A stretch of 64,000 nt of DNA from a virus (UHGV-0272730), one strand, 5' to 3'. Positions 34,402-41,768 are shown, counted from the stretch's first letter. Made by a program: numbers and translations. Notes: generated by a model not told the origin, from the letters alone.

Positions 34402-34477
34402 TGGAGAATCCGAAGGGACTCGAACCCTTATAAACCTGTTTTGCAGACAGGCACATAGCCATTTCTGTCACGGATTC
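34402..34477 (-). tRNA. tRNA-Cys (GCA)
   Basis: Acceptor GAATCCG/CGGATTC, T-arm GGGTTCGAGTCCC, anticodon loop CTGCAAA, CCA encoded. Confidence 0.7.
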
Positions 34478-34481
34478 AAAT

Positions 34482-34574
34482 TGGAGGAAGATACCAGACT
34501 TGAACTGGTACACCGATTTCTCAGCTACTGGCAGTTTAGCAAACTGCTCCCTTACCTTTTAGGGTTAATCTTCC
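34482..34574 (-). tRNA. tRNA-Ser (GCU), type II
   Basis: 93 nt; acceptor GGAAGAT/ATCTTCC; anticodon stem GCAGT/ACTGC with loop TTGCTAA; long variable arm. Confidence 0.6.
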
Positions 34575-34575
34575 A

Positions 34576-35373
34576 TTATTTCTGTAATGCGTTCTTCATT
34601 TCTGGTGTTGCAATAGTGTCAATCACACCAGTTTTACAAGCATCATCAAACCAGTCTGGTAAGATACCTGCTAAGAACCCATTGATATTCGTTTTAAGGT
34701 ACTCTGCAATAAGAGCAGCTTCTTCTTCAATCATCTGCACAACTTCATCTGCATAAGCTGTAATTTTTGAAATACCTTCATTAATCTTACTAACAGCTTG
34801 CTCAGCTAAATCAGAAATAGTATCAAGACCTTTGTCAATAGCATCTTGTAAGTCACTTAACACACCATTAACACTATCTAGTGCACTGTTAATCGTATCA
34901 ATAGCTTTTTGACCATACTCTGTAGCAACACCCATAATACCACTAAATGGTGTACAGCCAACTTGTTCACCTACTGCACCCATAACATTAGAGTAACCTT
35001 TTGCTACCTGCATACGTGATGAAAACTCATCAATGGACTTTTGACCATAGTCTGTTAAGGTCTTAGTAGTCGCTGTAGTGCTTGTAAGGCTTGTTGTAAA
35101 GCTGTTTAGAAGGACTGTTGTAAGTCCAGCAGCAACAAGTTTCTCCTTCATTGTAGGGTCTGTTACAGAGCTAATAGAACTTACAAGTGATGTAGAGGCA
35201 GCTACGGTTCCACCGAGAACTGCTGCACCAGTAATAAGGGGATTGGAAAACCCTCTACCGGTTTTTAAGAGATTAAAAATCTCCTTACCTTGTTCTGTCA
35301 TCTCTTTCATTAAGCACCTTTGAAATTGGTAGTCCAGTGGGATTTGAACCCTCTTCTCATGTTTTTCAGACAC
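34576..35373 (-). CDS. Ser/Thr/Ala-rich protein (265 aa)
   Basis: ORF between tRNA genes; low-complexity S/T-rich centre. Confidence 0.5.
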   Translation of the reverse strand: MSEKHEKRVQIPLDYQFQRCLMKEMTEQGKEIFNLLKTGRGFSNPLITGAAVLGGTVAASTSLVSSISSVTDPTMKEKLVAAGLTTVLLNSFTTSLTSTTATTKTLTDYGQKSIDEFSSRMQVAKGYSNVMGAVGEQVGCTPFSGIMGVATEYGQKAIDTINSALDSVNGVLSDLQDAIDKGLDTISDLAEQAVSKINEGISKITAYADEVVQMIEEEAALIAEYLKTNINGFLAGILPDWFDDACKTGVIDTIATPEMKNALQK

Positions 35374-35403
35374 GCGCTTTAACCATATAAGCTACTTGGA
35401 CTA
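35327..35403 (-). tRNA. tRNA-Phe (GAA)
   Basis: Acceptor TAGTCCA/TGGACTA; anticodon stem CGTGT/ACATG with loop CTGAAAA; T-loop TTCAAAT. Confidence 0.55.
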
Positions 35404-35408
35404 TAAAT

Positions 35409-35484
35409 TGGGGTGACCTACGGGATTTGAACCCGTATAGACCATGTTCACAGCATGGGTCATTACCATTTATGATAAGGCCAC
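35409..35484 (-). tRNA. tRNA-His (GUG)
   Basis: Anticodon stem CCATG/CATGG with loop CTGTGAA; D-stem TCAT/ATGA. Confidence 0.7.
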
Positions 35485-35515
35485 ATTTAAGGACTCTCGT
35501 AAGAATCCTTAGAAG

Positions 35516-35590
35516 TGGCAGCGGCATAAGGATTTGAACCTTAATAGGACAGCTTCAGAGACTGTTGCATTGCCAGTTATGCTATACCGC
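35516..35590 (-). tRNA. tRNA-Gln (CUG)
   Basis: Acceptor GCGGTAT/ATGCCGC; anticodon loop CTCTGAA. Confidence 0.6.
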
Positions 35591-35596
35591 TAAATT

Positions 35597-35675
35597 TGGT
35601 ACTCCATATCGGATTCGAACCGATACATAACACAGATTTTAAGTCTGGCCTCTCTGCCAATTGGAGTAATGGAGC
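35597..35675 (-). tRNA. compact tRNA with anticodon UAA (Leu-decoding, no long variable arm)
   Basis: 79 nt; canonical T-arm ATCGG-TTCGAAT-CCGAT and CCA; anticodon loop CTTAAAA; weak D-stem. Confidence 0.45.
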
Positions 35676-35677
35676 AT

Positions 35678-35752
35678 TGGCGGGGGATGTTGGAATTGAA
35701 CCAACTTCTTCGATTTCAAAGACCGAGGTTTTAACCTTGTAAACTAATCCCC
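35678..35752 (-). tRNA. tRNA-Gln (UUG)
   Basis: Anticodon stem TCGGT/ATCGA with loop CTTTGAA; acceptor pairing imperfect. Confidence 0.5.
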
Positions 35753-35761
35753 TTTAAATCT

Positions 35762-39600: not shown

Positions 39601-39606
39601 TTTATT

Positions 39607-39694
39607 TGGTGTGCCGTGTAGGAGTCGAACCTACCGAGTCTCAATGACAAGGGATTTACAGTCCCCACCGCTACCATCTACGGGATAACGACAC
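39607..39694 (-). tRNA. tRNA-Tyr (GUA), type II
   Basis: 88 nt; acceptor GTGTCGT/ACGGCAC; T-arm GTAGG-TTCGACT-CCTAC; anticodon loop CTGTAAA. Confidence 0.65.
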
Positions 39695-39703
39695 ATTTAA
39701 ATT

Positions 39704-39780
39704 TGGCGGTTAGTCAGGGATTCGAACCCTGTGCCATTCGCTTAACAGGCGACCGCACATACCTTATGTGCTTCCTAACC
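39704..39780 (-). tRNA. tRNA-Asn (GUU)
   Basis: T-arm CAGGG-TTCGAAT-CCCTG; anticodon loop CTGTTAA; one acceptor mismatch. Confidence 0.6.
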
Positions 39781-39857
39781 TTAATACATTGCCAGACCGT
39801 GTTTTTTCTTTTATCCGCAAAAAGTATTTTGTTGCTGAATACGGTCTTCTGCAAAAT

Positions 39858-39934
39858 TGGAGGCGGGTGCAGGAGTCGAACCTGCCGATACCATGCTAAT
39901 GAGACATGTGAGACGCCCTTTCTCTATACCCGCA
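39858..39934 (-). tRNA. tRNA with CAU anticodon (second Met, or Ile via lysidine)
   Basis: T-arm GCAGG-TTCGACT-CCTGC; anticodon stem CATGT/GCATG with loop CTCATTA; 1:72 unpaired. Confidence 0.5.
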
Positions 39935-40025
39935 ATTCTTAATGACCAGACCAAATCTCTTCTTTGTCCGATTTACCTTCAGATGAATAAGATTAAGTTT
40001 GCTGTAATTGGTCTTCTGTCAAAAC

Positions 40026-40103
40026 TGGCGTTCCAGAAGGGATTTGAACCCTCAGATATCCACTTTGAAAGAGTGGTGACTTTACCATTTTGTCTACTGG
40101 AAC
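40026..40103 (-). tRNA. tRNA-Glu (UUC)
   Basis: Acceptor GTTCCAG/CTGGAAC; anticodon stem CCACT/AGTGG with loop CTTTCAA. Confidence 0.7.
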
Positions 40104-40110
40104 ATTAATT

Positions 40111-40187
40111 TGGTCTCTGTTGGAGGACTTGAACCTCCGGCCTTACCGCCCCAAACGGAACGCTCTACCAAGCTGAGCTAAACAGAG
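40111..40187 (-). tRNA. tRNA-Pro (UGG)
   Basis: Acceptor CTCTGTT/AACAGAG; D-stem GCTC/GAGC; T-arm GGAGG-TTCAAGT-CCTCC; anticodon loop TTTGGGG. Confidence 0.65.
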
Positions 40188-40305
40188 ATAAACTTTTCAA
40201 ACTCTATGTAACCACTTTAACATTATTTTTTAGTGGTTGTCAAGAACTTTTTTAAAATATTTTTCAGTATCTTAGAAAAGCTCTCATTTCGTTTCTATGT
40301 AGAAC

Positions 40306-40334
40306 ATATTAAAGGGTATTAAACACATTGTCAA
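40306..40334 (-). promoter_or_regulatory. sigma70-like promoter driving the tRNA array (TTGACA-17 nt-TAATAT)
   Basis: Minus-strand TTGACA at 40329-40334 and TAATAT at 40306-40311, about 100 nt upstream of the first tRNA. Confidence 0.55.
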
Positions 40335-40352
40335 TACCCTTTTTAAAACTTT

Positions 40353-41768
40353 TTACCAGATGTAACGGTCAATCATTACTGCTTTGAGCATTACGCTGGT
40401 TGGGTCAAACTTCTCACCACCAAGCAGAGCTTTTAAAGTGGCTGGAGAGAACCCTGATACCATTGCTACACCGTTATCCTTAACAGATACTTCGCAAGTA
40501 CCACTACGGTTTGCTAAGTACCAGAATACCAGTTGTGGCATTTCGTATCCAGCTTTTTTGTACTTACTACGAATTGCTTCAAAGTTTGTACGACCATTTG
40601 CACCGTCAACCTGATTGAACTCCATATCAGAGAAGATGATAAGCTTACTTGGCATATCTTTCTGAGTCAAGTTGTTTCTCTTACCTGTCTCAAGAATGCG
40701 GTCAAAAGCTGCTTGTAAGTTAGTTGAACCGTATTCAACATGACGCATTACCTGACGATGACGGTTTCGTAAATCACCACTCAGTTCAATGAAGTGAGGG
40801 TTTGTTGAATAAACCATCAACTCATTCTTAAAGCAACCTGTATTACGTTCTGCTACATACAATGCAAGTGAAACACCAATATCAAGAGCAGTAATTGAAC
40901 CAAAATTCACCCAAGACATTGAACTTGAAACATCAGACATACATAGAATGTTTTCACCCTCTGCCATCCAGTTTGGTAGTGCTTTCCACTGCTCATTAGC
41001 AACATCTGCATTACCATACTTAACAGATTTAATCACATCGTATGGGTAAACAGCACCAGCATTAATCTTAGTCTTACCCTTTGATAAGGACTCGATGTAA
41101 GCTTTGTAGCGCTCTCCATCTTTACGGTTAAACAGTTTTTGGTAACGTGCAGCAGCAAGTGAAGGAATCTTGCTGTAATCAATCTTACCAAACTCATTAG
41201 CAGAGATTTTTTGCTCAACTGTATCAGATAGTGCAGACAACAGTGTGCGGTACTCTTTCTCACTCAAGTTGGCAAACTTGCAGAAACGTTTTACAAACTG
41301 TTTGTGGCGTGGTTTTACTCGTGGCAACCACTTAGCTGCTAAACCTGCTGTTGCAGGGTCTAGTAATGCTGCTTCTAAATGTTTGAAGGCATCTGTCTCG
41401 AAACGAGTACCTACGAAGATTTTGAAGTCATCAAAACGACCAAGTTCTGCAATCTTATCCATAATGCGAAGAACCTGTGTAGGTTCTAAAACTTTATCTT
41501 CAATCGCTTGAAGCAAAACAGTTCTGAAGGCTTTACGCTCACCCATACCTTCTCGTACATCTCGCATATGCAGTAAAATACGAACTGCAACATCAACATC
41601 CTCACGCAAAGCTTTGTAGAACAAGTCTGGTAAGATTTCTACATTGCTACGGCTTGAACCAGCAGCTTTGTAAAAATCTACAAGAGCAGACATTGATGAA
41701 GTATGGTTTACAGCACCATTTTCAGTTCGACCTGCATGAAGGTGCGCATGTTTAAATAACTCGCTCAT
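40353..41768 (-). CDS. vWA-domain protein with Ro60/TROVE-like architecture (471 aa)
   Basis: C-terminal MIDAS-like DxSxS (CMSDVSSSMS) in a region with alternating hydrophobic strands; N-terminal about 270 aa helical; family assignment not verified by search. Confidence 0.5.
   Translation of the reverse strand: MSELFKHAHLHAGRTENGAVNHTSSMSALVDFYKAAGSSRSNVEILPDLFYKALREDVDVAVRILLHMRDVREGMGERKAFRTVLLQAIEDKVLEPTQVLRIMDKIAELGRFDDFKIFVGTRFETDAFKHLEAALLDPATAGLAAKWLPRVKPRHKQFVKRFCKFANLSEKEYRTLLSALSDTVEQKISANEFGKIDYSKIPSLAAARYQKLFNRKDGERYKAYIESLSKGKTKINAGAVYPYDVIKSVKYGNADVANEQWKALPNWMAEGENILCMSDVSSSMSWVNFGSITALDIGVSLALYVAERNTGCFKNELMVYSTNPHFIELSGDLRNRHRQVMRHVEYGSTNLQAAFDRILETGKRNNLTQKDMPSKLIIFSDMEFNQVDGANGRTNFEAIRSKYKKAGYEMPQLVFWYLANRSGTCEVSVKDNGVAMVSGFSPATLKALLGGEKFDPTSVMLKAVMIDRYIW

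Follow-up and report, generated by a model that had tools for sequence, protein, structure and literature searches.

Candidate Y-like RNAs beside a Ro60-like gene in the tRNA array of a Felix O1-like phage

The viral stretch UHGV-0272730, whose 64,000 nucleotides we refer to as the window, carries on its minus strand a gene for a 471-residue Ro60-like protein (40353-41768) followed by a large array of tRNA genes, and we find that the promoter-proximal spacers of this array hold four structured RNAs, E1 to E4, on the same strand as the gene and 330-1140 nt downstream of it. We read the locus as a phage Ro60-type ribonucleoprotein (RNP) module with E1-E4 as its candidate RNA subunits, and put the probability of this reading at roughly 0.6. 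Ro60 proteins and their Y RNAs are conserved from bacteria to humans, and what they do is still debated. An earlier note, drawn from the sequence of the window alone, had proposed a Ro60-like RNP with tRNA-like partner RNAs at this place. The Ro60 fold and the presence of a same-strand candidate with YrlA architecture, E4, agree with that proposal, but two of the three elements that it had named as possible partners turn out not to be such RNAs.

Four RNAs in the spacers of the tRNA array

The four RNAs came to light as a repeated minus-strand pattern, in which AGAAGACC is followed by five variable nucleotides and CAGCAA, with GGUCUGG 50-120 nt further on. Exact matches to AGAAGACCN5CAGCAA number four, all at 39327-40017 on the minus strand; when two mismatches are allowed, one extra site appears elsewhere, giving five in total against 0.65 expected, and no shuffled sequence reached five. 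E1-E4 share a common fold, which consists of a 4-bp outer helix, a 3x1 internal loop (AGA opposite G), an inner helix in which AGACC and two further bases pair with the two complementary bases and GGUCU, then three bases and a single-stranded CAGCAA. The outer helix is always paired and its sequence is unique to each copy: UGAC/GUCA in E1, UUGC/GCAA in E2, GAGC/GCUC in E3 and UUAC/GUAA in the remaining copy.

Three of the elements are short, at about 65-82 nt, and resemble Y RNAs; all three had been missed by the earlier note. E1 (39943-40021, minus strand) lies between tRNA-Glu and tRNA-Met and has AGACCAA/UUGGUCU as its inner helix, with the AGA/G loop before it and UUA and CAGCAA after it. 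E2 (39789-39854, minus strand), between tRNA-Met and tRNA-Asn, has AGACCGU/ACGGUCU ahead of its CAGCAA, and E3 (39357-39438, minus strand), between tRNA-Asp and tRNA-Lys, again has AGACCAA/UUGGUCU ahead of CAGCAA. E1 and E2 each take up one tRNA-tRNA spacer: the gap between tRNA-Glu and E1 is 4 nt and that between E1 and tRNA-Met 8 nt, and the ends of the two elements are 4-11 nt from those of the tRNAs.

The fourth element, E4 (39213-39349, minus strand, 137 nt, fold z = -2.26), is a long YrlA-like RNA in the same tRNA-Asp/tRNA-Lys spacer as E3. Inside its closing helix, CAGCAA is followed by a V hairpin, a T-arm (GAAGGUUCGAUUCCUUC), a closed 7-bp 'acceptor' hairpin and a D-arm (GUGUAAUGGUAGCAC), which is the module order of YrlA RNAs (Chen et al. 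2014, PMC4201824). None of its 27 pairs is lost in any of 8 distinct Ounavirinae orthologues, and the acceptor hairpin shows compensatory change at 3 of them. The earlier note had described 39267-39330 as a T-arm remnant; the T-arm is there, at 39275-39295, where the Rfam tRNA model sees it, but it is one arm of a 137-nt RNA with a terminal helix. Neither ARAGORN nor Rfam calls any of E1-E4 as a tRNA, and only the E4 T-arm gives a local match (14.9 bits). In Citrobacter phage Mordin (locus L001, 7555-8304), ARAGORN reports a 'permuted tmRNA' that begins at the E4 orthologue, which, we think, is spurious and due to the permuted tRNA-like module.

Such elements also lie beside the gene in other phages. 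A first descriptor, with a helix of at least 5 bp and a degenerate CAGCAA, was too noisy, and we replaced it with an exact CAGCAA and a helix of at least 7 bp, together with background controls and covariance models. The density of CAGCAA on the gene strand is 3.7/kb beside the gene against 0.39/kb, about a tenfold difference, and a closing helix of at least 7 bp is present at 32 of 35 gene-adjacent CAGCAA sites as opposed to 29 of 156 elsewhere (Fisher p = 3e-16). We fetched 80 IMG/VR loci by the protein alone, 15 from Ounavirinae and 65 diverse. All 15 Ounavirinae loci carry the elements in one order, with the first only in a locus that ends at a contig edge. In the 65 diverse loci, 67 elements share the strand of the gene and 16 do not; an element stands beside the gene in 44 of these loci and a tRNA lies within 3 kb in only 11, so the RNA tracks the protein gene and not tRNA arrays.

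Covariance models sharpen this picture. The first, R1, was built from 28 short forms and finds only E1-E3 in the whole window (36.6 bits and E 1.6e-5 for E1, 38.5 bits and E 6e-6 for E2, 27.5 bits and E 0.0019 for E3, all three being members of the training set), the next match having E = 1.3. Over 70 loci it gives 48 matches with E <= 0.1, which come from 38 loci. Every one of them shares the strand of the gene, and 39 fall within 500 nt of the gene (p = 1.5e-22). Since R1 was made from short forms and gives E4 just 12.3 bits, a second model was required. This model, R2, comes from an alignment of long forms without any Ounavirinae sequence, and it finds E4 at full length with 68.6 bits (E = 8e-10), followed at 22 bits by a tRNA-tRNA junction. 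From the non-Ounavirinae long forms RNAalifold arrives by itself at the T-arm, acceptor hairpin and D-arm; 13 of the 15 pairs are compensatory, and every covariation measure for the alignment lies above 500 of 500 shuffles. The closing helix escapes RNAalifold, since MAFFT has displaced the ends of some rows by one column; here the helix is only 66% paired.

The same RNA family occurs in phages whose hosts span Proteobacteria, Firmicutes and Actinobacteria (at least 3 phyla). Klebsiella phage phi1_175008 (Stephanstirmvirinae, protein 47% identical) has five elements within 700 nt after its DUF2828 gene, two of which, with 36 and 34 bits (cut-off 69), cover the Rfam YrlA model from end to end. 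In mycobacteriophage Kingsolomon three stand directly behind the 'Ro-like' gene, and one of these is YrlA-like (37.9 bits). Phages of Campylobacter, Listeria, Bacillus and Enterococcus carry 2-5 copies upstream of the gene, Sinorhizobium phage phiM12 has two long forms, and a Staphylococcus phage one short form. Between lineages the helix sequences are wholly different and CAGCAA is constant, placed 1-4 nt after the helix; the helix tends to start A-G-R, and an unpaired G follows its 3' strand. The 5' GAAG of the Ounavirinae and Klebsiella elements had looked homologous, an idea we dropped as its register relative to CAGCAA differs. In Bacillus phage vB_BcoS-136 (locus L010, 913-1036) a CAGCAA closing helix surrounds first a D-arm, then an anticodon-type arm and then a T-arm, as they are ordered in a normal tRNA, and there is no acceptor stem; this is a third layout of the family beside the short and permuted forms.

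A Ro60 fold in a separate sequence family

The open reading frame at 40353-41768 (minus strand) does encode 471 residues, and its architecture is as the earlier note had read it: an AlphaFold model made with 46 homologues as input (pLDDT 90.1, pTM 0.89) is helical to about residue 265 and alpha/beta beyond. The predicted DxSxS motif corresponds to D279, S281 and S283, which with T349 and D381 make up a complete MIDAS, and all five residues are invariant among the 46 homologues. When the model was compared with the Protein Data Bank (PDB) by Foldseek, all 12 matches at E <= 1e-5 were Ro60 proteins (from phage phiLo, Xenopus, human, and Deinococcus, where it is called Rsr), with E from 2e-8 to 8e-6 over the whole chain and about 510-550 aligned columns; proteins with only a vWA domain first appear at E = 3e-3. 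Structure prediction and two fold searches thus agree on a complete Ro60 fold, a ring of HEAT-like helical repeats with a vWA/MIDAS domain after it.

By sequence, the protein belongs elsewhere. It passes the Pfam cut-offs for DUF2828, which covers the helical domain (103.6 bits, cut-off 29), and for DUF7788, which covers the vWA/MIDAS domain (148.4 bits, cut-off 27.1), and matches PHROG 850 at 6e-183. The TROVE domain expected of a Ro60 protein did not emerge from profile searches, there being no match to Pfam TROVE (PF05731) at E <= 1 for the protein and five distant relatives; these six family members yield a single faint vWA_Ro60 match, 17.3 bits against a cut-off of 27.7. No solved Ro60 chain in the PDB was found by phmmer with the single protein or with a profile of 46 sequences, and the kinship to Ro60 is visible only by fold comparison. 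The domain call of the earlier note is thus correct at the level of the predicted fold, and by sequence this is a separate family. The model suggests that the protein is a member of a phage-borne, sequence-divergent Ro60 clade (DUF2828 with DUF7788), a family present in hundreds of sequenced phages, for which the phage collection has 710 records and which comprises over 2,000 protein clusters.

A phage Ro60 particle and its alternatives

Y and YrlA RNAs are tRNA mimics whose genes share the strand of a Ro60 gene and lie no more than 4 kb from it (PMC4201824). The locus in the window resembles the Ro60/Rsr systems with Y RNAs (Xenopus and human Ro60; the Deinococcus Rsr-Yrn1-PNPase complex 'RYPER') in having small RNAs nearby on the same strand, whose ends pair into a closing helix with an asymmetric internal loop. 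It differs from them in that the phage protein has no detectable sequence similarity and is about 50-60 residues shorter, in that the RNA genes are embedded in a tRNA operon, and in the signature itself, since the Y RNAs have GGUCCGA/GNCGAA within the helix whereas the phage RNAs have CAGCAA after it. With YrlA RNAs (RF02553), E4 and its relatives share the terminal stem, V, T-arm, closed acceptor stem and D-arm in that order and a place beside a Ro60-type gene, within about 4 kb on the same strand; at 34-38 bits (cut-off 69), the copies from Klebsiella phage and mycobacteriophage span the full model. Unlike in YrlA, CAGCAA stands in place of GNCGAAN0-1G, Infernal placing CAGCAAAU on the model's cggCgaAU, and the partner protein is of the DUF2828 type, not annotated as TROVE.

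Three phage systems are closer still. The Ro60 protein of Thermus phage phiLo binds host PNPase and two adjacent Y-like RNAs, Yrl1 and Yrl2 (PMC12135203; PDB 9KOP, 9L5Y). That protein is recognisable as TROVE, its RNAs have a CGAA motif and there is no tRNA array; RNA binding and PNPase recruitment have been demonstrated for phiLo, whereas our locus is known from sequence and models. The actinobacteriophage 'Ro-like RNA-binding proteins' (Kingsolomon gp54, LeBron gp53) have the same Pfam architecture and 31-34% identity over the full length, and their genes are directly followed by three CAGCAA elements, one of which is YrlA-like, but without a surrounding tRNA array and with GGACNNN as the helix sequence; overexpression of LeBron gp53 is moderately toxic (PMC13148394). 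In the Felixounavirus Bas63, a 2024 PhageMaP preprint describes gp130 as a Ro60-like gene directly upstream of tRNA genes that counters the Ppl defence and is needed on a host with that defence (PMC11482910). To judge by this description, gp130 is likely an orthologue of the 471-residue protein.

How much of this is new? The Ro60-likeness is already known from annotations and, for the likely orthologue, from the PhageMaP preprint, which also raises the possibility of Y RNAs among the annotated tRNA genes (PMC11482910). That guess concerned annotated tRNA genes, whereas E1-E4 sit in unannotated spacers. The RNAs themselves seem new: for their CAGCAA signature, short and long forms and spread we found no Rfam 15 family at threshold and no paper in a search that stopped short of the subscription literature and of the supplement to Chen et al. 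2014, a list of phage YrlA RNAs that may include some of the cluster L mycobacteriophage copies.

Several points weigh against an RNP made of this protein and these RNAs. About 40% of the diverse loci are without an R1 match in their 3-kb flanks. The helix criterion chose the R1 training sequences, so the pair counts in that training set are circular; many of the loci are related, so the p-values overstate their independence, and the covariance-model E-values are rough. No sequence method (Pfam, phmmer, or a profile against the PDB) ties the protein to TROVE. The Rfam Y_RNA and YrlA models, by which the earlier note had thought the partners might be recognised, have no match in the window at E <= 10, the YrlA model not even when just 271 nt were searched, and the classical GNCGAA motif is absent from the E RNAs. 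Finally, gp130 alone, on a plasmid or inserted in T7, restores T7 plaquing on the Ppl strain (PMC11482910), so its anti-Ppl effect can do without the phage's own E RNAs.

Taken with the evidence for linkage, these points leave us with the view that E1-E4 are probably the RNA partners of the Ro60-like protein; their expression and their binding by the protein we infer from the Ro60 literature. We speculate that the E RNAs are co-transcribed with the tRNAs from promoters at 40334-40214, and we see no terminator-like site on the minus strand between these and the RNAs. RNase P and the enzymes of tRNA 3'-end processing might then cut the flanking tRNAs and release the E RNAs, as would follow from the 4-11 nt that separate E1 and E2 from tRNA ends. 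The helix with CAGCAA could be the docking module for the protein, replacing the GNCGAA/GGUCCGA helix of classical Y RNAs, and the variable interior, tRNA-like in E4, could tether or gate a host factor, much as PNPase is held to Rsr, or to phiLo Ro60, by a Y RNA. Such a particle might turn host RNA decay and quality control to the phage's favour and contribute to counter-defence. Given the rescue by gp130 alone, the part played by the E RNAs may be to regulate the protein, to broaden its range of targets or something else. More tentatively, and at somewhat less than even odds, DUF2828 as a whole might be a phage-specific Ro60 clade with an undescribed class of Y RNAs, marked by the closing helix with CAGCAA, occurring in short and in permuted-tRNA forms and, where a phage has a tRNA array, matured free by host tRNA-processing enzymes, and a general device to hijack RNA decay or oppose defences such as Ppl.

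It is also possible, if unlikely, that the CAGCAA elements are cis-acting signals in the untranslated regions (UTRs) of the Ro60-like mRNA and the tRNA precursor, where they could be autoregulatory operators or govern stability and processing, and that the protein binds them only to control its own operon. Most loci of uncultured phages have a single short element at a UTR-like spot, which is either 24-30 or about 215 nt past the stop codon or else 50-150 nt ahead of the start codon, as this model would have it, and a hairpin with a similar stem, AAAGGG...CCCUUU, overlaps a promoter-like site right after the gene. One would not expect from an operator, however, 4-5 copies as in the window and in the Klebsiella and Bacillus phages, up to 1.1 kb away and with promoters and tRNAs in between, nor would a UTR operator need the full T-arm, acceptor hairpin and D-arm of the heavily covarying long forms; processing of the flanking tRNAs would, moreover, release the elements as separate RNAs.

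Another model, which we consider improbable to the same degree, is that protein and RNAs are independent, the protein blocking a defence such as Ppl through a vWA/MIDAS contact or a host RNA, and the E RNAs being accessories of the tRNA operon, for example decoys for tRNA-targeting nucleases or modification enzymes. The sufficiency of gp130 against Ppl in T7 infection fits this model, as do the tRNA mimicry of E4 and its relatives and the proposal that phage tRNA arrays counter tRNA-directed defences (cited in PMC11482910). But accessories of tRNA operons should follow the arrays, and the counts from the 65 diverse loci, 44 with an element beside the gene and 11 with a tRNA, go the other way. 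So does Pectobacterium phage Arno162 (L002, Ounavirinae), which keeps the tRNA array and the DUF5681 gene and, in the 18-kb stretch examined, has neither a Ro60-like gene at the syntenic position nor a CAGCAA element. The idea that the elements are functionless, as decayed tRNA genes or as scars or repeats left by homing endonucleases, is already disfavoured and has very little probability left: HNH genes do sit in differing spacers among relatives and E4 has recognisable tRNA arms, but an invariant CAGCAA, helices that compensatory changes preserve across phyla as well as inside Ounavirinae, and a conserved strand and placement with respect to the gene all speak against it, as does the single order of elements in 15 of 15 Ounavirinae loci.

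Phages offer a compact system for genetic tests of Ro60 and Y RNA function. With candidate RNAs located and with helix and CAGCAA positions that can be mutated, one can ask whether protein and RNA act as an RNP, what the tRNA-like module recruits, and how Ppl is neutralised. For annotation, the lesson is that tRNA-array spacers which look "empty", those of the type phage Felix O1 among them, hold E-type RNAs, and that these may provoke false permuted-tmRNA calls.

The locus and its other features

The 8-kb region is 95-98% identical to the Felix O1-like phages vB_EcoM-Ro111lw, KhF3 and Felix O1 itself, in whose RefSeq record the orthologue is labelled 'RNA-binding protein' and the tRNA spacers are without annotation. 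From high to low coordinates, the minus strand carries a DUF5681 gene (41850-42221), the 471-residue protein gene, two promoter-like sites, 26 tRNA genes (34402-40187) and the large terminase gene. The earlier note had counted about 26 tRNAs, and ARAGORN calls exactly this number, all on the minus strand and downstream of the Ro60-like gene, with 23 of them reaching the Rfam gathering score. A few small open reading frames are interspersed among them, as is one gene for an HNH homing endonuclease (36985-37398, minus strand, found by Pfam and PHROG) between tRNA-Thr and tRNA-Gly. The tRNA-free gaps that the earlier note had pointed out are genuine, and that at 38176-38317 has a fold z of -2.45. 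Because relatives carry HNH genes in different spacers (three in Felix O1, and one in yet another spacer in Sf19), much of the variability of the gaps is explained, and the spacers of the array are insertion hot spots.

A promoter had been proposed at the head of the array, at 40306-40334 (minus strand), and this site, P1, does contain TTGACA-17-TAATAT, with 10/12 consensus positions. A second site, P2 (40214-40243, minus strand), 26 nt ahead of tRNA-Pro, has TTGACA-18-TAAAGT and the TG motif of an extended -10, and a third, 5' of the Ro60-like gene (41808-41837, minus strand), has TTGACA-18-TAAAGT, again 10/12. Such sites number 20 in the region against 18.6 expected from shuffled sequence and are thus no commoner than by chance, so each of the three is a consensus match only. 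The -35 box of P1 is enclosed by a 12-bp hairpin, AAAGGGUAU...AUACCCUUU (40311-40342, minus strand), directly after the Ro60-like gene. It was picked up by a terminator scan and scores weakly with R1 (13.8 bits), and it could be a terminator, an operator or both; a Klebsiella phage (locus L003, about 9455-9490) has the same arrangement, AAAGGGGUUGACA...CCCCUU.

Two of the elements that had been listed as aberrant tRNA-like RNAs proved to be of other kinds. The one at 36907-36983 (minus strand) is an ordinary tRNA-Thr(UGU), called by ARAGORN, scoring 28.8 bits with the Rfam tRNA model (cut-off 29) and annotated as tRNA-Thr in Felix O1, Mordin and Sf19. The other, at 36814-36903, matches no tRNA in any tool and is part of a stable hairpin (36812-36906, minus strand, z = -3.24) in the spacer between tRNA-Thr and tRNA-Val, with no R1 or R2 match. 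This hairpin is nearly invariant between Felixounavirus and Mooglevirus, as the comparison with Mordin and Sf19 shows, whereas its flanks differ by about 15%. It carries GAAGACCGU, which resembles the 5' side of the E elements, and has no CAGCAA, no matching 3' strand and no informative covariation.

Some further observations concern the RNAs of the region. An element at 38099-38173 (minus strand) that ARAGORN does not call is tRNA-like in that its acceptor stem has 7 bp, GCCA is encoded at its end and a T-arm is present, but its D region is odd and CCA occurs in an 'anticodon' loop of 9 nt; Rfam gives it only 23 bits, with the tRNA-Sec model, and tRNA-Trp is otherwise absent from the array. 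We set aside a 'permuted tmRNA' match at 38544-38817 (24.5 bits), of which the overlapping tRNA-Ile (38759-38834) is the probable cause, as well as weak Rfam matches in the window to miRNA, Dictyostelium class I and plastid families, which are chance or antisense to tRNAs. In Listeria phage cka15 (locus L008, 3428-3979) there is a match to ROOL RNA (90.1 bits, cut-off 99.1, E 8e-17) inside the tRNA array, about 1 kb upstream of the DUF2828 gene, with genes annotated 'tRNA splicing ligase' and 'RNA ligase' at most 5 kb downstream. Directly after E4 in the window lies another large structured RNA of 146 nt (39067-39212, minus strand), which has a minimum free energy of -46.4 kcal/mol (z = -5.51, with 0 of 200 shuffles as stable) and no Rfam match. 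It is conserved in Mooglevirus, with six compensatory pairs relative to Felixounavirus; its 22-bp closing helix surrounds a multi-branch junction, and one hairpin loop contains AGCAA.

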